Source of the DNA: Alphaproteobacteria bacterium
GTDB taxonomy: Bacteria; Pseudomonadota; Alphaproteobacteria; Rs-D84
Direction of reading: 5' to 3'
DNA length: 64,000 nt
NCBI GenBank assembly: GCA_017522445.1
Contig: JAFWZK010000014.1
Span: forward strand, 21,783 to 85,782
Position numbers and translations under genes: made by a program. Below the pieces are notes generated by a model, which searched no databases, had not been told where the DNA came from, and worked only from the letters and a program-made list of their open reading frames with translations. Positions 16,692-41,057 of this stretch are shown piece after piece (positions within the stretch are counted from its first letter, which is position 1; every line of letters starts with the position of its first letter).

Positions 16692-19445
16692 ATGTCAGAA
16701 AATATAAATGAAGTAAACGAAGTGCGTGTTCCCCAGTCATCATTGGAACACGAAATGCGGACCAGTTTTTTAGACTATGCGATGTCGGTTATTGTTGATC
16801 GTGCATTGCCTGATGTTCGTGACGGGTGTAAACCTGTGCACCGCAGAATTTTGTATGTTATGAACGATGTTGCACCTGCGACCAAGCCGACTGTCAAATC
16901 TGCCCGTATTGTTGGTGATGTTATGGGTAAGTATCACCCACATGGTGACAGTTCTATTTACGAAGCGATGGTTCGTATGGGCCAGGATTTTTCCATGGGT
17001 GAAATGTTGGTCCAGGGTCAGGGAAACTTTGGTTCGCGTGACGGGGACAAAGCGGCGGCCATGCGTTATACCGAGGCGCGCTTGTCCAAACTGGGTGCGT
17101 CATTAATGGACGACATGGACAAAGACACGGTTGATTGGATGCCGAACTTTGACGGCAGTTTGCAAGAACCGGTTGTTCTGCCGACCAAGTTTCCAAACTT
17201 TTTGGTAAACGGTGGTTCTGGTATTGCGGTTGGTATGGCGACAAACGTTCCGACCTATAACCTGGGCGAGGTGTGCAATGGTATCCTGGCGGTGTTGGAC
17301 AATCGTGATATATCTGATGATGAATTGTTTACGATTATTCCTGGGCCTGATTTTCCAACTGGTGCGATGATAATGGGGCGTGCCGGTGCGTACAAGGCAC
17401 ACACCACTGGGCGTGGTTCGATAATAATTCGCTCTAAAACGCACATCGAAGATTTTCGCGACCACCAGGCGATTATTGTTGATGAAATCCCATACCAGGT
17501 GAACAAGTCGCAGATGATTATCAAAATCGCCGAATTGATAAAAGACAAACGAATCGAAGGCATATCAGAAATTCGTGACGAATCATCCAAAGAAGGTCTG
17601 CGAATTGTAATTGAATTAAAACGTGATGCGATTGCTGATGTTGTACTGAATCATTTGTTCCAGTACACAGAAATGCAGACCAGTTTTCCGGTCAACATGA
17701 TGGCATTGAATCGTGGTCGCCCAATGTTGTTTAATGTTCGTGGTGTGCTGGATGCCTTTATTGATTTCCGTGCCGAGGTTATTCGCCGCCGCACAATCTT
17801 TGATTTGAACAAGGCGCGCAATCGTGCACACACATTGTTGGGGCTGTCGGTTGCGGTTGGTAATCTGGACGAGGTTATTGAATTGATTAAATCCAGTGCC
17901 AATCCAGAAGAGGCACGCACCGCCTTGGTATCGCGTGGATGGCGTGCATCGGACATTGAATCATATATCCAGTTGATTGATGACCCGAACACAGAATACA
18001 AAGATGGCATGTTCTTTATGTCCGAAGACCAGGCCCGTGCAATTTTGGAATTGCAACTGCATCGTTTGACGGGGCTGGAACGTGATAAGATTCACGATGA
18101 TTTGACATCGTTGGGTGCGACAATTCGTGATTTGTTGGAAATATTGGGCAGTCACGAACGCATTATTCAAATTATCCGCGATGAAACAACAATGGTTCGT
18201 GATAATTGGGCATCGCCCCGGCGGACTGAAATTTCCGATGCGGAAATCGACATTGATATCGAAGACTTGATTGCCCGCGAAGACATGGTTGTAACGGTTT
18301 CGAATACCGGTTATATCAAGCGTGTTGCACTGGATACATATCGTGCCCAGAAACGCGGTGGCAAGGGACGCAATGCCATGACCACCAAAGACGATGACTA
18401 TGTTGTCCAGGTGTTTGTTGCGAACACGCACACACCGCTGTTATTCTTCAGTTCACGTGGTTTATGCTATAAATTAAAAACCTATAAATTGCCCGAGGCG
18501 GCGGCCGCGGCCAAGGGTCGTCCACTGGTAAATCTGTTGCCACTGGAACAGGGCGAAACAATCACAGCGATTTTGCCTGTGCCGGACGAAGATGTTGCAC
18601 GTGTTGCAGAATCTGGGGTTGAACACTTCTTGATGTTTGTGACTGCATCTGGCACGGTTCGCCGCAACCGGATGAGTGACTTTGATTCTATCCGTGCCAA
18701 CGGTAAAATTGCGATGAAATTGGACGAAGGTGACAGTTTGATATCTGTGTTGCCATGCAACGAGGACCAGGATGTATTCTTGTCCACATATCGTGGCCGT
18801 GCCATACGATTCCCTGTGCCAGAAATTCGTGTATTTGCAGGTCGCAATTCGACCGGTGTTCGTGGCATCACATTGGGGCCAGACGACAAGATTATCGGCA
18901 TGGCAATGTTGAATCGTGGTGAATCAGATTCGGCGGTTCGTGCGGCCTATATCAAGCAATCACGTGCCGCCCGCCGTGCCGCAACTGGTATTGAAGAAGA
19001 GGTGTCTGCCGATGAAGAAGAAACAACACTGGTTCTGGACGATGCCAAGATGGCACAAATGGCTGCCGCGGAACAGTTTATTTTAACGATATCTGAAAAC
19101 GGCTTTGGTAAACGCACCAGTTCGTATGAATATCGTTTGACGCATCGTGGTGGTGGCGGCTTTACAAATATCAAACTGGGTGGCAAGAATACTGCTGTTG
19201 CGGGTTCGTTCCCTGTATCTGATGACCAAGATATCATCATGGTAACAGACGGTGGCAAGATAATCCGTACACCTGTGTCTGATGTTCGTATTGCAGGCCG
19301 TTCGACTGCGGGTGTGACGTTGTTCCGTACGGCGGATAATGAACGTGTTGCATCTGCGATTGCAATCGAAGGGGCAGGCGAAGAAGAATCTGTGGGGTTT
19401 GCAACTGAATCTTCTGAATCTGCAACAGAAACTGTATCTGAATAG
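16692..19445 (+). CDS. gyrA: DNA gyrase subunit A
   Basis: GyrA motifs (...[11 protein letters not shown].., the active-site Tyr region, and beta-pinwheel C-terminal repeats) with an acidic tail. It is 917 aa. Confidence 0.95.
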
Positions 19446-19836: not shown

Positions 19837-19862
19837 AAAAACCGCCGTTTGGCGGTTTTTTT
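19837..19862. terminator. Bidirectional intrinsic terminator (accgccgtttggcggt)
   Basis: Hairpin flanked by an A-run and a T-run, lying between convergent genes. Confidence 0.7.
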
Positions 19863-20439
19863 AACGTTCATTTTGCAGTTTTTGCAATTTTGCTTGATGT
19901 ATTTTTATTCGATAGTTGTGGAAATCTGTACGTGATTTATACAGATTTTCTTTATATCTGGTTTTCAGTGGCATACGACTGACCGAGTCCACCGCCATGC
20001 TGTCGCGTTTTAATTGTTCGATGCGATTATGTGCCTGTCGCATATTTTCGGCAGCTTCAATGTACGCCCTGTTTTTGTCGATGTATTCATCTTGCAGTGC
20101 CTCTGCTAATATCTCCATATCCTTGGACAGTTTGTTGTACTTTTCCAGCATGTTCGCAGTTACATATCCATTGTTCATTTTTTCATACAGTTTATTTTGT
20201 TCTGCGACCATATTCAGATATTTTGAATCCATATACAAAGTATCTTTGCTGTGCAAAATTGCACGTCTTTGTGCGGTTTCATAGTCACCTTCGGCCTTAA
20301 ACAGCATGTTTTTTGCAATGTCCATATCACCAGTATCAAAGGTTGGCGTGTCATAGTTCAGGATGTATGCGACATGTGCAAACGCAGCCAATGATGCTGT
20401 TGCTAATGTTGCTAATGCTGTGTTCTTTATATTTTTCAC
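19861..20439 (-). CDS. Secreted coiled-coil protein, hypothetical
   Basis: GTG start with an AAGAGGAGAA ribosome-binding site. It has a signal peptide, and the rest is predicted alpha-helical, Lys/Glu-rich coiled coil. Confidence 0.5.
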   Translation of the reverse strand: MKNIKNTALATLATASLAAFAHVAYILNYDTPTFDTGDMDIAKNMLFKAEGDYETAQRRAILHSKDTLYMDSKYLNMVAEQNKLYEKMNNGYVTANMLEKYNKLSKDMEILAEALQDEYIDKNRAYIEAAENMRQAHNRIEQLKRDSMAVDSVSRMPLKTRYKENLYKSRTDFHNYRIKIHQAKLQKLQNER

Positions 20440-20479
20440 GACGTTCTCCTCTTGGGTTATACGCTCACTTACACAGTAT

Positions 20480-20508
20480 AATATAGTACAAAAACACGCG
20501 TTGTCAAC
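20480..20508 (-). promoter_or_regulatory. Sigma-70-like promoter (TTGACA, 17-nt spacer, TATATT) for the 19861..20439 gene
   Basis: Read on the minus strand this is TTGACAacgcgtgtttttgtacTATATT, about 40 nt upstream of the start codon. Confidence 0.4.
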
Positions 20509-20522
20509 AGATTTGTATAAAA

Positions 20523-20702
20523 TTATCTGGTTTTTTGGATTGCGTGTTGCAGGGTTTCGGTTTTGTTTACCTGCACCAGTTTTTGTTTTTCTGCACCTTT
20601 TTTTATGCTGATTATGACACCGGCAAACAGTGCGGCAAACAACGCCACCTCGCAGATTCCCAGGATTGTATTTTGAAAGATTTCTTTTTTATTTGTTTTC
20701 AT
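20523..20702 (-). CDS. Small single-TM membrane protein
   Basis: The track ORF is trimmed to the internal start MKTNKKEIF because its 5' extension overlaps tRNA-Glu. It has one hydrophobic helix. Confidence 0.35.
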   Translation of the reverse strand: MKTNKKEIFQNTILGICEVALFAALFAGVIISIKKGAEKQKLVQVNKTETLQHAIQKTR

Positions 20703-20727
20703 ATGGCTAGCATTATTATTTTTTTGT

Positions 20728-20802
20728 TGGCACCCCCAACGGGAATCGAACCCGTGTTGCCAGAATGAGAATCTGATGTCCTGACCGCTAGACGATGGGG
20801 GC
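20728..20802 (-). tRNA. tRNA-Glu (anticodon read as CUC)
   Basis: My reverse-complement folds into a cloverleaf: acceptor GCCCCCA/UGGGGGU, D-arm GUCU..GGAC, anticodon stem UCAGA/UCUGG with loop UUCUCAU, and T-arm ACGGG-UUCGAUU-CCCGU. The CCA end is encoded. Confidence 0.8.
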
Positions 20803-20906
20803 ATTTTGATTTGTGTGTGTTCTTAATCATATACGAAAAGTTATATTTTTCAAATGAAACTTTTCCCTTGCGGCAATTTTTTTTATATCCTAGGATTATC
20901 ATCAAG

Positions 20907-21632
20907 ATGGCTGGTTCAATACGCAGATTTTTTACAAATGCAATATGCGGTCTGATATACAATCGTGACACGCGTCGTCGTGTACGTGTTGTGTTAAACT
21001 CGTCAATGATTGATTCTTTGCGTTTTATTCGTAAAAATTTGGGCCGACCGGTACGAAAAATCAAAACATTTGTTGGTTATCAGGCACGAAATTTGTTAAT
21101 CAGTGTAAATGATGAATACATATATAAATTTCCCCTTCGTCGCAGTAATTCACGTGAACTAACACTGCGTGAATCGCGTATTGTTGCCGCGTTGGGGCCA
21201 CTGTCGCCGATATATGTACCACCTGTTGATGTGTATACGCATCGTGGTGTTTTGGTTCGCAGGTATAAATTTATTCGCGGTTATGGATTGCGTCAAATTC
21301 CGTTGGATGTTGCAATGGCAAATATTGATAAATTGGCAAAACAGATTGCATATTTCATGTACAAGATTGGTCGTGCCGACCCGGAAACTATTCGTGATTT
21401 AAAGTCTGATGTGAATGCGAAACCTGGGTATCTGTACGGTTGGTCTCAGGGTGATATTTGTGATAACTTTATTGTTGATATAAATACGATGCAAATCATT
21501 GCGTTTATAGACTGGGAGGATTGCAGGTTTGGCGATTTTTCGGATATATTTATTGGTGACAAAAACAGTCCACATCGTGAATTGATGGCCGCCATACGTG
21601 CGGAATATGACCGGCTGTATTCTGGGCAATAA
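20907..21632 (+). CDS. Kinase-like phosphotransferase (APH/choline-kinase fold)
   Basis: Internal start MAGSIRRFF. It has Brenner-like catalytic-loop and DFG-like motifs (GWSQGDICDNFIV...IAFIDWEDCRFGDFSD). It sits directly 3' of tRNA-Glu. Confidence 0.5.
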   Translation: MAGSIRRFFTNAICGLIYNRDTRRRVRVVLNSSMIDSLRFIRKNLGRPVRKIKTFVGYQARNLLISVNDEYIYKFPLRRSNSRELTLRESRIVAALGPLSPIYVPPVDVYTHRGVLVRRYKFIRGYGLRQIPLDVAMANIDKLAKQIAYFMYKIGRADPETIRDLKSDVNAKPGYLYGWSQGDICDNFIVDINTMQIIAFIDWEDCRFGDFSDIFIGDKNSPHRELMAAIRAEYDRLYSGQ

Positions 21633-21971
21633 ATGCCTGGGTGCGGGCGCACGGGTCCCTTACAACCGTTAAAAACCTTAGAAAACAAACATTTTTCGAT
21701 TTTTAAAACTAATATTTTGCTGGTCTTGATTGACACTTTGCTTTACACACTTGATTATAACACAAATAAATTAAAAGCACAGTATTTTTTATAACCACGT
21801 AACCACATAACCAGAAATAATATTGAAATTATCCCTAAACTGCGATAGAATTAAACCAGAATCCAGTGGGAATTGGATTCGGGACTGTGATAAGTCCAGA
21901 TTACACGGTGCAAATACGCATCGTTATCTTGATATAATGGTGCGTTGCGCCGTTATGTCCCTGACCTTTGT

Positions 21972-22081
21972 GGTCGGGGGGCTGTTGGCTATACAACAGG
22001 GGAAACCTAAAGGCCACGGAATCACTTGTAATCTGATTTATCAACTCCCCGACCGTCTTATTCCCTATGGCGGTCTTTTTT
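21972..22081 (+). promoter_or_regulatory. Conserved structured 5' leader, copy A (candidate riboswitch or attenuator with terminator)
   Basis: The outer helix is GGUCGGGG(21972-79) paired with CCCCGACC(22047-54). The inner helix uggc/gcca encloses the conserved UAUACAACAGGG...AAAG. A terminator hairpin gaccg...cggtc followed by U6 lies at 22051-22081, about 20 nt before the lipoprotein start codon. Confidence 0.55.
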
Positions 22082-22101
22082 ACACTTACAAGGGGATAGA
22101 T

Positions 22102-22542
22102 ATGAAAAAAATCATTTTTATTTTGCCTATAATATTACTGTGTGCATGCCAAACTAAAATATTTTACCCATACGATGGCACAAAAACAATAACTGGCGAT
22201 GGTGGTTTTGTATGGACACATATACCCGCATCCAATTTGGGCAAGCCCATGTTTGGCAAAACGCCAAAATATAAATACGACAGTGTAGCATTTTATGAAT
22301 CTGGACTACCCGCAGGTGCAAAATGTACCTTAGTTGGTTATTATGCAGCATCTGACATAAAACAATTTGCCAGAAAGATGCTTGAAATGGATGCAAATGT
22401 CGCAACCAAATCCCCTGTTATTCTGCCTATCAGCTTTGATAATAATGCTGGCATACTCGGTGGCACACGTGCAGCCAGCGATTGGTATAACGTGGACAAC
22501 ATAAAAGTTGCCACTGGGTTTAATATTTTTGAATGTAAATAA
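22102..22542 (+). CDS. Small lipoprotein or secreted protein
   Basis: The track ORF is trimmed to MKKIIFILPIILLCAC, a lipobox-like signal, with an AGGGGA ribosome-binding site 6 nt upstream. The mature part is Gly/Tyr-rich. Confidence 0.6.
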   Translation: MKKIIFILPIILLCACQTKIFYPYDGTKTITGDGGFVWTHIPASNLGKPMFGKTPKYKYDSVAFYESGLPAGAKCTLVGYYAASDIKQFARKMLEMDANVATKSPVILPISFDNNAGILGGTRAASDWYNVDNIKVATGFNIFECK

Positions 22543-22553
22543 AGGAGTAAAAC

Positions 22554-22736
22554 ATGAAAAAAGAAAACATTGGTGCAGTATTTATGATGTTAGTGTACAT
22601 ACTGGGCTTTTACGGCTATGTAAATAATATTGTTCGCATTTGGGATTGTGATACATCTTCGTGCCGTACAATTCGTGTGATAGGTGCAATAACAACCATT
22701 CCAGGGGCTGTTATGGGCTTTATAGATTTTGATTAA
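22554..22736 (+). CDS. Small membrane protein
   Basis: 60-aa ORF with an AAGGAG ribosome-binding site and one TM helix, 11 nt after the preceding gene. Confidence 0.4.
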   Translation: MKKENIGAVFMMLVYILGFYGYVNNIVRIWDCDTSSCRTIRVIGAITTIPGAVMGFIDFD

Positions 22737-22758
22737 AATAAAACAAAAGGAGCGAAAT

Positions 22759-22959
22759 ATGAAAAAAATGATAATTATCGCAATCATAGCCACTTTTACA
22801 GGTATATCCGATGCAGATGCGGGCTATTACAGAACAAAAAACACCTTTACAGGTGGCTATACATCAACAGGACGTACCAATAATCTGGGTATGCGTCGTG
22901 CACCCGCTGGATATCACACAAATTCGTACGGTATCGTACAGAAAAACAATCCATTTTAA
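22759..22959 (+). CDS. Small secreted Gly/Tyr/Thr-rich protein
   Basis: ATG at 22759 after an AAGGAG ribosome-binding site, with a signal peptide (MKKMIIIAIIATFTGISDA). Confidence 0.45.
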   Translation: MKKMIIIAIIATFTGISDADAGYYRTKNTFTGGYTSTGRTNNLGMRRAPAGYHTNSYGIVQKNNPF

Positions 22960-22962
22960 CAA

Positions 22963-23439
22963 ATGGGGTATAATATGAACAAAGTAAAAAGAATTGCAAC
23001 CATAGCAATTATCTGCATAATAGCATCCGCTATTGGCGTAAGTATTTATAACTACACCCAAAACCAAAAGATAAAAAAACAGCAAGAAGATTGCCAAAAT
23101 TTAGCACACGAATTCTTTATTGATACTTTTGGTACGGCGGACGATATATACGATTATTGCAAAACCACAAAAGAACAAGAACTGTATAAGAAAAACAAAA
23201 AATTATATGGACTTGATGGCGCAACACTAGAAGACCATCAAAAAATATTCGCATTATGCGAATGTGCCACAGCCAATTTATACAAAACCATTATTCAGCC
23301 TTGGTTGGACAAATGTTATGCTAACGATGCGACATGGCTTTTAGAACCAGCAAGAATGAAAACAACCATTCAAAAAGACCATAAAATTAAAAACCTCTTC
23401 ATTGATACCAGTTATGAATTATGTGAAAGATTTAACTAA
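22963..23439 (+). CDS. Membrane-anchored Cys-containing hypothetical protein
   Basis: 158-aa ORF. The alternative start at 22975 (MNKVKRIA) follows a GGGG motif. It has an N-terminal TM segment. Confidence 0.45.
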   Translation: MGYNMNKVKRIATIAIICIIASAIGVSIYNYTQNQKIKKQQEDCQNLAHEFFIDTFGTADDIYDYCKTTKEQELYKKNKKLYGLDGATLEDHQKIFALCECATANLYKTIIQPWLDKCYANDATWLLEPARMKTTIQKDHKIKNLFIDTSYELCERFN

Positions 23440-23454
23440 AAAAGGAACAAACAC

Positions 23455-23571
23455 ATGAAAGCGGTAATTCCTGCACGTGTATCTTCCCGAGAACAAGAAA
23501 TGGAGCAATCTATTGATGCGCAGCTGGAAAACATGAAAAGTATGCCCAGTGCAAAGAATTACCGCTATTAA
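23455..23571 (+). pseudogene. Serine recombinase (resolvase/invertase) N-terminal fragment
   Basis: The 38-codon ORF MKAVIPARVSSREQEMEQSIDAQ... matches the catalytic Y/I-x-A-R-V-S-[ST]-x-x-Q motif of serine recombinases, then terminates. I see no continuation in any frame. Confidence 0.55.
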
Positions 23572-23764
23572 AAACATTTCAGATAATCGAAAGTTCAACA
23601 CGTGGTGAACGCAAAATAATTTACCAATTCCCAAGGTTTATATTTTCTGTATGTATTGAATATCCCGCATTATGCTGCGTTAGTCGTTTCTTTAAATCAT
23701 CGGTTTGCCCGATGTATTTTTGTTCTGGATGGGAAATGCTTTTTATAAGATAGACATAAAACAT

Positions 23765-23902
23765 TTATAAGTCCCCCTTCGTTAAAACTTCGGGCGACAC
23801 TACTTCGCCTATGCTTCTCGGCTTGTGTGGCCTGTATAAGTCCCCCTTCGTTAAAACTTCGGGCGACACTACTTCGCGATAACTGCTCCGCCTGTGTGGC
23901 CT
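23765..23902. repeat. Tandem direct repeat, 2 x 69 nt
   Basis: Units at 23765-23833 and 23834-23902 share an identical 43-nt 5' portion (tataagtcccccttcgttaaaacttcgggcgacactacttcgc) and a conserved 3' end (tgtgtggcctg). Confidence 0.8.
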
Positions 23903-23933
23903 GCCACACGAAGCGTCGCAGACGCGAAGTGTG
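23903..23933 (-). other. Interrupted palindrome abutting and overlapping the tRNA-Gln 3'-CCA
   Basis: The sequence ccacac-gaa-gcgtc-gca-gacgc-gaa-gtgtgg is a perfect two-tier hairpin. Its gtgtgg arm supplies the CCA of tRNA-Gln, and no U-run follows it. Confidence 0.6.
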
Positions 23934-24005
23934 GTTGGGGCGCACGGATTCGAACCATGATAAAGAGAACCAAAATCTCTTGTCCTACCATTAGACGACA
24001 CCCCA
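23931..24005 (-). tRNA. tRNA-Gln (anticodon UUG)
   Basis: The reverse-complement is UGGGGUG...AGAGA-UUUUGGU-UCUCU...CAUGG-UUCGAAU-CCGUG-CGCCCCA-A-CCA, with the same architecture as E. coli tRNA-Gln. Confidence 0.85.
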
Positions 24006-24257
24006 AAAGCAACATTGATTATAATTATCTTTTGTAAATTTGCAATAATAAATTTTTGTTTGATTAAAACCGTGATTGGTTTCTGGTTATGTCGCACAAA
24101 AACGGTGGTCAAAAATCGCCATTGGCATATTCGACAATAAATGCCCTGTTTCCATTAGGTGTTGTAACTTCGTACAATGGCACGTTCAGCCCATCTGACC
24201 AGAAATTGTATGACAACAATTATCAAAAGATGCGAAATCTGTTTAACTAACTATAAA

Positions 24258-24283
24258 AGTGCCACATCCGTGGCATTTTTTTC
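24258..24283 (+). terminator. Orphan intrinsic terminator (gtgccacatccgtggca followed by T7)
   Basis: Good hairpin and U-run inside a 630-nt intergenic region with no protein ORF upstream on this strand. Confidence 0.5.
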
Positions 24284-24507
24284 ATCTCGTGCAAAGAAAT
24301 ATTGATTTTAAGATGTTTTTTTTGTATCATAAACAATGAATCCACAGGTTAGTGGTTTCAGGGTCTTCAAAAACCTGTTAAACAACCGGCATAACAATCA
24401 TTGTTGTGCTGTAATCCGCACAAAAGAAATGGACGCGGATGCGTCTTTTTTTTGTGAAACACCTTTGGCACACCGTGTAATTCTTTTACATGTTTTCCAC
24501 ATTGTGT

Positions 24508-24625
24508 GTCGGGGTGCTGCCGGCTATACCACAGGGGCATGGCCCCAAAGGCCGGCGGGAATCATTGTTGTTTATGGTTTTTTGAACACCCCGACCACCG
24601 TATCTGTATGGTGGTTATTTTATTG
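24508..24625 (+). promoter_or_regulatory. Conserved structured 5' leader, copy B
   Basis: The outer helix is GUCGGGG(24508-14) paired with CCCCGAC(24589-95). The inner helix gccggc/gccggc encloses UAUACCACAGGGG, a ggggcauggcccc hairpin and AAAG. A terminator gaccacc...ggugguu followed by a U-rich run lies at 24593-24625, and the start codon is at 24640. Confidence 0.55.
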
Positions 24626-24639
24626 TCGGGGGGCGATAG

Positions 24640-25527
24640 ATGTTTCGCAGGATTGTTTTTCCTGTTATTTATATGTTGTTGTTTATTTGCACTGCATATG
24701 CACAAATGCAGTGTGATGACAGCAAGTGCTGGCATACATTAAATTTTGGTGAACATTCTGTACGTGCCTATGACAAACGTTCTACAACCCCGTCAATTTG
24801 TATTCAGGACACATCTGGTCAAATCTGGTATGTTAACATGGTTTTGGGGATGTTGCCACAAACACTGCATGCCCAGCAGGGTACAGAAATATATTCCGCA
24901 ACAGATGCACTGTATGAAATTGTTGATGGACGACTGGTATGGGCACATCCTGATATTTATTTGCAAAGCAGTGGCACCCAGTACATAGATACCGGTATTA
25001 CACCATCAGACACACTGGGGTTGCGATTTGATTATCTGCGTGAAAGTGGTACATCAGATCATGTGCTGATTGGGTCGCAATTGGAAATTGGTTCGGCCGT
25101 TCCTGAATATGCCCGCTTTACATTGGGGCAAAGCAACAGCCCATATTATGGATGGAATACGTATCGGCATACTGGGTTAAGTATCACGGAACGTTATTTG
25201 GTCAACTTGAATTACATGAACAGTCGTGAAGTTACGTACAATGGTGCGGTTGTTAAAACGGGGCTGGATACACATCTTGACAATCCGTACTCTATTTATG
25301 TATTCTGCACGAACCGCAAAGGGACGGCATCTGTTTGTTCCAAGATAAAAGTGTATTCTGCGATATTAACGGACGGCGCGGAAACGGTTATGCATTTGGT
25401 TCCTGTGCCATCAGGTCTGCAGATTGGTGATTTTACAGTTCCATCAAACGGCATGTTTGATATTGTTTCTCAGAAATTTTATGGCAATTCTGGCACGGGT
25501 GATTTTGAATTTGGCACAGATTATTAA
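24640..25527 (+). CDS. Secreted hypothetical protein
   Basis: 295 aa with a signal peptide (MFRRIVFPVIYMLLFICTAYA) and no recognisable domain. Its GGGG..GATAGatg start context is shared with the 22102 lipoprotein gene. Confidence 0.6.
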   Translation: MFRRIVFPVIYMLLFICTAYAQMQCDDSKCWHTLNFGEHSVRAYDKRSTTPSICIQDTSGQIWYVNMVLGMLPQTLHAQQGTEIYSATDALYEIVDGRLVWAHPDIYLQSSGTQYIDTGITPSDTLGLRFDYLRESGTSDHVLIGSQLEIGSAVPEYARFTLGQSNSPYYGWNTYRHTGLSITERYLVNLNYMNSREVTYNGAVVKTGLDTHLDNPYSIYVFCTNRKGTASVCSKIKVYSAILTDGAETVMHLVPVPSGLQIGDFTVPSNGMFDIVSQKFYGNSGTGDFEFGTDY

Positions 25528-40803: not shown

Positions 40804-40828
40804 TTTTATGTCCTTTGATTTTGCCAAC

Positions 40829-40931
40829 AAAAAACCGTCAAAAATTGACGGCCGGGCATTTTCAAGGTCATAAATCCAAATGACTCTGTGGCTTTCGGGA
40901 ATCCCTGTTGTATAACCACAGATACCCGACC
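40829..40931 (-). promoter_or_regulatory. Conserved structured 5' leader, copy C
   Basis: On the minus strand the outer helix is GGUCGGG(40931-25) paired with CCCGGCC(40856-50), including one U-G wobble. The inner helix cugugg/ccacag encloses UAUACAACAGGG, a gggauuccc hairpin and AAAG. The terminator ccgucaa-uuu-uugacgg followed by U6 lies at 40851-40829, and the start codon is at 40803. Confidence 0.55.
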
Positions 40932-41057
40932 TCACATGGGGGTCAGGTTACATATCGACACGCATTGCGTGCCGTGGATTTATGGGTCTTGAAAACCCAG
41001 ACCTTTGATTATCAGGTCGATGGCATTATGCCCCAGAAAAATAAAATTTTCAACTGA

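Follow-up and report, generated by a model that had tools for sequence, protein, structure and literature searches.

A probable remnant of integrative elements at the 3' end of tRNA-Gln in a Candidatus Enterousia-like chromosome, with a relic of a large serine recombinase and a GIY-YIG module

Characterised large serine recombinases (LSRs) mostly integrate into protein-coding genes or intergenic sites. According to a 2026 paper, serine integrases are the integrase family more commonly used in biotechnology (PMC12884075), and Hudson, Lau and Williams (2015) stated that only tyrosine-family integrases, not serine integrases, were known to target tRNA genes (PMC4383910). Among smaller elements, SegB of phage T4 is a free-standing GIY-YIG homing-endonuclease gene in the phage tRNA gene cluster (PMC2330249), and the structured RNA sRNA-Xcc1 is described from integron cassettes of Xanthomonas, where it precedes symE (PMC12444791), and from APSE phages, where an ORF6N gene follows it (PMC7313666). 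Here, we analyzed the interval between tRNA-Glu(CTC) and tRNA-Gln(TTG) on a stretch of 64,000 nt from an alphaproteobacterium (the window; GenBank assembly GCA_017522445.1, contig JAFWZK010000014.1, positions 21,783 to 85,782), which holds an LSR relic, a GIY-YIG nuclease pseudogene and an sRNA-Xcc1-like leader. The locus is a genuine though ordinary remnant of an island, resolved in unusual detail as far as the microhomology of a deletion, and its part at approximately 21638-23931 (window coordinates) is probably what erosion has left after one or more integrative elements had inserted at the tRNA-Gln(UUG) 3' end.

The window is a chromosome like that of Candidatus Enterousia: its GyrA (16692-19445) is 88-98% identical to the GyrA of 80 species known from metagenome-assembled genomes (MAGs) labelled Candidatus Enterousia, Alphaproteobacteria or uncultured (alpha)proteobacterium, and it also carries rpoB, rpoC and four tRNA genes. 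Loci of relatives were labelled L001, L002 and so on, the core set consisting of 80 gyrA-anchored species loci. The metagenomic contig L001 is identical across the region, and a second strain contig (L002) ends within the repeat region. The gene order gyrA, merR, tRNA-Glu, a variable interval, tRNA-Gln, marR, OEP is kept in 24 related species together with the orientation of the tRNAs, and the two tRNAs are 405 bp (L052) to 6673 bp (L051) apart, with the open reading frames (ORFs) of the interval falling into 57 gene families, 46 of them singletons. Since the interval varies in length and contains mostly unrelated genes, it is a hot spot, and the tRNA-Gln 3' end serves as a hot spot of recombination across Candidatus Enterousia. 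The original prediction had described everything between the two minus-strand tRNAs, which ARAGORN and Rfam agree upon, as an island whose recombinase had decayed; this stands for ~21638-23931 with tRNA-Gln as the target, and fails for the kinase-like gene and for the boundary at tRNA-Glu. The comparison it proposed with related genomes, in search of an empty junction, gave a hypervariable interval with near-empty junctions in L052 (405 bp) and L075 (794 bp), and no empty site within the species. The features listed in the original prediction are all there, none more than 1 nt off its given coordinates; two further ones had been missed, namely the GIY-YIG pseudogene (23601-23764, minus strand) and a copy of the tRNA-Gln 3' end (21638-21654).

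This copy marks the true left edge of the island. It reads TGGGTGCGGGCGCACGG, directly follows the stop codon of the kinase-like gene, and is a degenerate direct copy of the tRNA-Gln 3' end (TGGTTGGGGCGCACGG); aligned with 23932-23947 it agrees at 15 of 17 positions with one indel, and an equally good copy of the tRNA-like 17-mer turned up in 1 of 3000 shuffles. The copy and the intact tRNA-Gln lie 2.3 kb apart and bracket the element. In L044, a perfect 16-mer is found between the native tRNA-Gln terminator flank and an arm that is 89% identical to window 21645-21776. A tRNA-Gln fragment after the kinase stop codon occurs in no other species, L009 sharing just TAAATGCCT before it diverges. 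Partial copies (14-16 nt) of the tRNA-Gln 3' end are present in 14 related loci, up to three in tandem and ~175 nt apart. The site has been used repeatedly. The tandem ~175-nt units adjoin tRNA-Gln (L082 at 17192, 17368 and 17540; L075 at 6773 and 6951; L052 at 15522 and 15693; L044 at 20938 and 21111), each holding a terminator hairpin of its own besides the final 14 nt of the tRNA, and no gene; such units may represent a tiny non-autonomous element or the scars that repeated integration left behind. The left arm that follows the copy in the window (GTCCC..ACAAC..; 89% identical to L044 at 21655-21776) carries promoter-like sites at 21730-21758 and 21823-21851, upstream of the leader, as well as a conserved palindrome (hairpin) at 21859-21880.

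At the tRNA-proximal side, the predicted 38-codon ORF (23455-23571) with the serine-recombinase motif MKAVIPARVSSREQ (R8, S10; ..ARVS..) was recovered. One A is missing from the A-run at 23536-23539, which gives a -1 frameshift, and the frame-corrected relic reads MKAVIPARVSSREQEMEQSIDAQLENMK and then KYAQCKELPLLKTFQIIESSTRGERK, so that homology extends beyond the short motif to about 54 codons. These match Pfam Resolvase with E 4e-4 (20.8 bits, cut-off 23.3; 37 of 145 model positions left), and tblastn found two annotated LSRs, a 499-aa 'recombinase family protein' from a Legionella plasmid (E 4e-7, with 53% identity over 49 aa) and, from a faecal phage, a protein of 520 aa (E 4e-6). The identity with the N-terminus of the L094 LSR is 81% and 69% in two segments. 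In a collection of 5.8 billion proteins, the seven closest relatives were all short relics of 31-79 aa, and the closest ones covering nearly the whole fragment are 70-88% identical. Over the first 28 residues, the relics of L095 and L089 are 93% and 92% identical to that of the window; the L089 relic, 94% identical in DNA, retains the A lost from the window A-run, and the L095 relic, which lies after tRNA-Glu, has a partial tRNA-Gln copy nearby. The latter (L095 8042-10096) is a 31-codon relic preceded by a 396-aa AAA_15 ATPase and a 247-aa protein, and this cargo, downstream of tRNA-Glu, looks defence-type. This recombinase was found in none of the 80 core loci.

No LSR homology past codon ~54 was detected in the window with the full-length LSRs of Legionella, phage MT837677 and L094 as queries, and the Recombinase (PF07508) and zinc-ribbon (PF13408) domains are absent from it; the further frame-shifted pieces that the original prediction hoped to find are not there, the rest being deleted. 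An apparent continuation of the LSR, 'RKIIYQF', was rejected, being just the GIY-YIG gene read in antisense. The L089 recombinase is matched as far as 23624 and the L054 GIY-YIG gene from 23608 onwards, and judging by these limits of homology a deletion at the 17-nt microhomology AACGCAAAATAATTTAC joined recombinase codon ~54 to codon ~55 of the convergent GIY-YIG gene. From its sequence, the window copy is assigned as a pseudogene fragment of an LSR gene; it reads towards tRNA-Gln and lies at the tRNA-proximal side, as in intact relatives.

Intact 501-aa LSR ORFs are present in L102 and L104-L107, the close 501-aa relatives carrying Resolvase, Recombinase and Zn_ribbon_recom domains, and L094 has a near-full-length LSR with the latter two. 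The stop codon of the L094 LSR is located 33 nt inside a convergent tRNA-Gln(CTG), and LSR stop codons are likewise found inside tRNA-Asn on the Legionella plasmid and inside tRNA-Leu in phage MT837677. Among 79 metagenomic relatives, 24 of the 61 that could be judged overlap or abut a convergent tRNA (Asn in nine, Gln-CTG in seven, Gln-TTG in two, and five others). All six relatives with at least 67% identity and a contig reaching that far overlap tRNA-Gln(CTG) by 33 nt, and in a whole sub-clade the stop codon lies 33-45 nt inside the convergent tRNA (loci L094 2019-2051, L091 4471-4500, L092 2302-2400, L102-L107 and L111). The C-terminus ..WLGQLDSNQH is the antisense translation of the acceptor and T arm of the tRNA. 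In L111, the LSR frame does not stop in the tRNA-like segment (45 nt) and remains open for over 100 codons beyond it, which is what an unintegrated attP form should look like. The candidate attachment (att) sites reconstructed from L106 are attB, CTTGGTTCGAATCCAGGTTCCCCAACCA joined to CACTTCGCGTCTGCGACGCTTCGTGTGG, and attP, ..ATGGTTCGCAAATCATTTAGAATCGGCAACCA joined to TACTGCACGATTGGTCAAATTGACC... In the frame of the C-terminal 'WLG', the window left arm (21633-21794, plus strand) is open for 53 codons, and L106 (~600-690, hand translation) for ~45 codons. Speculatively, the recombinase of the excised circle could have a longer and different C-terminus than that of the integrated state. A possible, rather doubtful extension is that the relic would be a member of an undescribed LSR clade integrating at tRNA 3' ends, with attP within the 3' end of its own gene: the integrated form would end in ~11 codons antisense to the tRNA, and as the frame is open for ~45-53 more codons across the reconstructed attP (window, L044, L106), the excised tail would differ. 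In Enterousia, the same proposal has a second user of the tRNA-Gln site, a GIY-YIG mini-element of 81 codons whose insertion point at several tRNAs is immediately behind the CCA, the palindrome of this mini-element perhaps forming half of attB.

The GIY-YIG pseudogene scores 35.7 bits on the Pfam model (cut-off 22.6), with the N-terminal half covered. Its codons 1-39 are intact, a 1-nt deletion follows near 23646, and of the 81 codons nothing is left beyond codon ~55. Intact 81-aa orthologues were found in L012, L046, L053 and L054, and the full-length ones of L012 and L054, which follow tRNA-Gln, are 97% identical in the stretch of codons 1-39. In L012, L046 and L054, the tRNA-Gln CCA is followed by a palindrome, a single 69-nt unit and the 81-codon gene, and in species without the GIY-YIG gene an ordinary terminator stands directly after the CCA, for which reason the palindrome was rejected as a universal terminator. 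The two-tier palindrome (CCACAC..GCGTC TGC GACGC..GTGTGG), which as predicted overlaps the tRNA CCA (23932-23934), is the first element of the module; it folds with -17.8 kcal/mol (z = -2.9) and is identical at 31 of 31 positions in the window, the inner copy of L046 and L106, the protein of the latter being just 65% identical. In L054, a compensatory swap of G-C to C-G keeps the pair. The same module is found separated from an intact tRNA in L053 and L106, and a like module (~55% protein identity) directly adjoins a CCA in three further loci, that of tRNA-Gln(CTG) in L090 and that of tRNA-Glu in L055 and L059. Half of the GIY-YIG matches (7/14) are positioned 107-167 nt downstream of a same-strand tRNA. 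In L046, a direct repeat of ~235 nt (CCA, palindrome, unit, GIY-YIG codons 1-22) flanks 2.9 kb. The module, an 81-codon gene behind a strongly folding 105-165-nt spacer, starts after the CCA of three tRNAs (Gln-TTG, Gln-CTG, Glu-CTC; window 23601-23934, L012 18039-18388, L054 19614-19963, L090 1258-1606, L055 3724-4084, L059 6999-7379, L106 295-645), and remnants of the first hairpin without a GIY-YIG gene follow tRNA-Glu in L022, L040 and L044. From this distribution, we infer that it behaves like a small mobile module aimed at tRNA 3' ends.

The tandem repeat of two 69-nt units is real, although displaced by one nucleotide from the predicted position (23766-23903 vs 23765-23902). Together with the palindrome it had been taken for a trace of the integration of the island; both belong to the GIY-YIG module, as the arrangement in L012, L046, L054, L053 and L106 shows, and neither is, at least in a simple way, an att site of the island recombinase. 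The two copies are 88-90% identical and share their first 43 nt, and all eight differences fall in a ~17-nt stretch after this core. The distal unit is the L053 allele (68/69), and the variable 17-nt block of the proximal unit is the L012/L054 allele. As the two units match single-copy alleles of different species, the duplication probably joins diverged copies and is not fresh slippage; a simple slippage duplication, considered as a candidate, is unlikely on the same grounds. The second copy of the 43-nt core that had been suggested as attL or attR was not found in the window with up to three mismatches allowed, and none of 100 shuffles reached two matches.

Table 1. Features of the interval between tRNA-Glu and tRNA-Gln, in window coordinates.
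Feature	Position	Strand	Basis	Remark
tRNA-Glu(CTC)	20728-20802	-	ARAGORN and Rfam	Landmark conserved among relatives, outside the island
APH-family kinase-like gene, 241 aa	20907-21632	+	Pfam APH; orthologues beside tRNA-Glu	
Direct, degenerate repeat of the final 16 nt of tRNA-Gln, TGGGTGCGGGCGCACGG	21638-21654	none	Repeat search	att-type remnant
Non-coding left arm of the island	21655-21968	+	blastn to L044; promoter-like sites; hairpin	
sRNA-Xcc1-like structured leader with intrinsic terminator hairpin	21969-22085	+	Rfam RF02221	'Leader A' of the original prediction
Probable lipoprotein or secreted protein, 146 aa	22102-22542	+	ORF with GGGGA ribosome-binding site	
Small membrane protein ORF, 60 aa	22554-22736	+	ORF with AAGGAG ribosome-binding site	
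ORF with signal-peptide-like N-terminus, 66 aa	22759-22959	+	ORF with AAGGAG ribosome-binding site	
N-terminally anchored orphan protein, 154 aa	22975-23439	+	ORF	GC 32.9%
LSR relic, ~54 codons including the R8/S10 catalytic motif	23455-23624	+	Sequence comparison with L089 and L094	
GIY-YIG nuclease pseudogene	23601-23764	-	Pfam GIY-YIG (PF01541), E 1.1e-8	
17-nt microhomology at the deletion junction, recombinase (+) / GIY-YIG (-), AACGCAAAATAATTTAC	23608-23624	none	Homology limits	
Two 69-nt units of the tRNA-to-GIY-YIG spacer	23766-23834 and 23835-23903	-	TRF and repeat search	
Two-tier palindrome, starting with the tRNA CCA	23904-23934	-	Fold	First element of the GIY-YIG module
tRNA-Gln(TTG)	23932-24005	-	ARAGORN and Rfam	3' end is the integration hot spot

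Between the left arm and the relic, the predicted leader and four small ORFs encoding secreted or membrane proteins were all found (Table 1), the ORFs having AAGGAG- or GGGGA-type ribosome-binding sites and hydrophobic N-termini. Rfam model RF02221 matches over its full length (87 nt) at 21972-22062 with 41.5 bits and at 24508-24603 with 28.9 bits, and neither copy reaches the gathering threshold of 53 bits. Compensatory changes were observed in 4 of 19 pairs among nine Enterousia copies, so that the structure of the leader is supported independently of the Rfam score. A covariance model built here scores 21969-22085 at 118.6 bits and retrieves 24 copies of the leader in 1.57 Mb of Enterousia loci, with three on the window: 21969-22085 (+), 24504-24626 (+) and 40823-40934 (-). 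Other copies are located at L036 6935-7049 and 10984-11105, L053 14385-14501 and L089 907-1023; those inspected stand upstream of genes for lipoproteins or signal-peptide proteins, and some also share the upstream palindrome (window 21859-21880). For the 146-aa protein, five homologues were found (33-56% identity, one of them named Enterousia), and the two that were traced lie in genomic contexts other than this one; the sole database match of the 154-aa protein is itself (99% identity). In tblastn searches of the 80 related species loci, no counterparts of the 146-, 60-, 66- and 154-aa ORFs were found, and Pfam and NCBIfam searches of the cargo proteins gave no match. In L089, the leader (96% identical) and the LSR relic (94%) enclose a different gene. 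The AT-richness of the accessory block noted in the original prediction is present and mild: the GC content of the cargo (22102-23439) is 35.9% vs a gene mean of 43.6 +/- 3.5% (z = -2.2), being lowest in the four small ORFs, and that of the kinase gene is 40.6% (z = -0.8). Low GC already starts to the left of tRNA-Glu.

The predicted kinase-like phosphotransferase gene is present and was wrongly counted as island DNA. The window protein is sub-threshold on Pfam APH (PF01636; 21.4 bits, cut-off 23.2), 8 of 12 orthologues match this model at E < 0.01 (best E 1.2e-9), and a profile of the family matches APH(2'') structures with E 1.5e-5; a PDB search with the single sequence returned nothing significant. 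By these profile matches, the family is clearly predicted to be APH-like. Orthologues with 36-85% identity adjoin the 5' side of tRNA-Glu in ~20 species, whatever comes next, and the kinase is the commonest gene of the interval; it is a long-term resident and no cargo of the island. The gene is tandemly duplicated in several species (family F0: L012, L027, L042) and has diverged far more than the core genes around it. As the 3' end of tRNA-Glu faces left and not into the interval, this tRNA does not bound the island as had been proposed. On that 3' side, L004 and L005, which belong to the species of the window, have a 49-nt insertion exactly 3' of the tRNA-Glu CCA with GTGCCA duplicated (window 20722-20728), and many species have a conserved ~100-nt element there whose end is the tRNA-Glu 3'-like GGTTTCCCGTTGGG; this side, with the low-GC genes at 19861-20702, also resembles an insertion site. 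The 5' side of tRNA-Gln is variable as well (window 24006-25527; L009 16325-20480): L009, the closest species, has ~4 kb of different DNA there, and the 295-aa secreted protein behind the second leader copy was found only in L036 and L052.

In the history that would account best for these observations, the LSR was the integrase of the element and would have recognised the 3' end of tRNA-Gln, because its nearest intact relatives (501 aa) are convergent to a tRNA gene, with the stop codon 33 nt inside. The LSR was inactivated twice, by the loss of one A from the A-run and by the deletion between the 17-nt microhomologies; as a result of the latter, it is now joined to the convergent GIY-YIG gene, and the 3' portions of the two genes are gone together with all that lay between them. 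The GIY-YIG module may have been a later arrival at the same CCA junction or may already have been present, and the two non-identical 69-nt units may be the footprint of recombination between two diverged copies of it. The cargo between leader and relic would be open to exchange, probably via homologous recombination between copies of the leader. By now the element is probably immobile, with the four small genes and the leader as its likely sole working parts.

Several observations weigh against an island brought in by this LSR. No intact copy of this island was found, and LSR-mediated integration is something we infer. No empty site was seen within the species, all strains found carrying the island arm; the att remnant is only 15/17 identical, with one indel, and the compositional deviation is mild. 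Displaced tRNA fragments of at least 11 nt were absent within 6.8 kb upstream of the intact LSRs at the 25 loci with enough upstream sequence, and both junctions of L106 share only CAACCA; the lack of a long tRNA repeat at intact LSR islands weakens the link of the 16-nt repeat to the LSR, and this repeat fits the footprint of a tyrosine integrase, or a mimicry of the tRNA by attP, at least as well. Intact LSRs abut the tRNA directly, whereas in the window the GIY-YIG module separates the relic from the tRNA, and therefore at least two events are needed. Finally, leader and lipoprotein-gene modules without an LSR relic occur in L053 (between the kinase and the GIY-YIG gene) and in L036 (after the kinase), thus the cargo need not have come with the recombinase, and taken together with the gene swap in L089 they indicate that it is exchangeable.

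Some of these points would be explained if another enzyme, e.g., a lost tyrosine integrase, had integrated the island and the LSR fragment were a passenger or part of a second, stacked element, which we consider unlikely. Tyrosine-integrase islands are classically recognised by an identity of 14-16 nt with a tRNA 3' end, partial copies of this sort are frequent at the locus, among them the tandem ~175-nt units without a recombinase, the intact LSR islands of the clade have no long repeat, and in L100 a homologue of the 146-aa lipoprotein adjoins a tyrosine integrase and tRNA-Pro. However, the LSR relic is positioned and oriented like its intact relatives, reading towards the tRNA, similar relics recur (L095 and L089, the former near a partial tRNA-Gln copy), and no trace of a tyrosine integrase was found in the window interval with Pfam and NCBIfam. 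That the whole interval from tRNA-Glu to tRNA-Gln (20803-23931), kinase included, represents one decayed island is very improbable: the tRNA-Gln copy and the break in homology come directly after the kinase stop codon, the kinase stays on the 5' side of tRNA-Glu in ~20 species regardless of what follows, the 3' end of tRNA-Glu faces the other way, and no relatives were observed that lack the kinase between tRNA-Glu and the tRNA-Gln flank and have it travelling alongside the LSR. This has to be set against the variation of the whole interval in length and content among species and against the unusual divergence of the kinase (36-85% identity vs 88-98% for GyrA) and its slightly low GC at third codon positions. 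It is highly improbable that no site-specific integration took place and that the slot was shaped by homologous recombination and local duplication, with the 17-mer and the 69-nt duplication arising by chance or slippage, even if the cargo swap between conserved flanks (L089), the multi-copy leader family as a possible recombination substrate and the simple head-to-tail form of the tandem repeat are all compatible with it. The 17-mer was equalled in just 1 of 3000 shuffles, L044 has an exact junction from the native tRNA flank to the homologous island arm, the eight unit differences are confined to ~17 nt and each version is the single-copy allele of another species, the ~235-nt direct repeats of L046 lie 2.9 kb apart, and a genuine recombinase relic is present. 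An eroded remnant of elements integrated at tRNA-Gln remains the reading we prefer.

When this remnant is compared with the known systems, the islands at tRNA 3' ends with the 'Islander' signature (intact tRNA, displaced 3' fragment, integrase on board) are similar in having an intact tRNA-Gln with a partial direct copy, a recombinase inside at the tRNA-proximal side, a sporadic occurrence among relatives, slightly AT-rich accessory cargo and partial copies that accumulate in tandem in relatives; unlike them, the window has a serine and not a tyrosine recombinase, in a 2.3-kb wreck with a degenerate repeat. With serine integrases of the phiC31, Bxb1, A118 and CcrAB types, the relic shares the N-terminal resolvase-type motif (R8, S10), and the very short junction identity in L106 (CAACCA) is as expected for them. 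The characterised LSRs differ from this clade, in which the stop codon is placed 33-45 nt inside a convergent tRNA, and the window copy keeps ~54 codons. If true, serine integrases with a tRNA 3' end as attB would contradict the statement that only the tyrosine family targets tRNA genes (PMC4383910), and such an LSR clade would recognise short, highly conserved targets. In the literature, of which our coverage was incomplete, we found neither serine integrases described as targeting tRNAs nor GIY-YIG genes described as linked to the 3' flanks of tRNAs.

The GIY-YIG module abutting the CCA and the sRNA-Xcc1-like leaders are two further leads in this little-studied gut lineage. Like the free-standing GIY-YIG homing endonucleases, the module is a small gene beside tRNAs, present or absent among relatives and with sharp insertion boundaries. 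In contrast to genes of the T4 SegB type, its 81-aa protein is limited to the catalytic domain and has no DNA-binding domain that could be recognised, the module itself is chromosomal and not phage-borne, and it is always found downstream of a tRNA on the same strand, exactly after the CCA, with a structured 105-165-nt spacer. The leader resembles sRNA-Xcc1 in its 9-bp closing helix, its AUACAA loop and its place just before an accessory gene, within DNA that is mobile or variable, and it differs from it in scoring below the Rfam cut-off, in having its own intrinsic terminator, in preceding genes for exported proteins and in forming a multi-copy chromosomal family.

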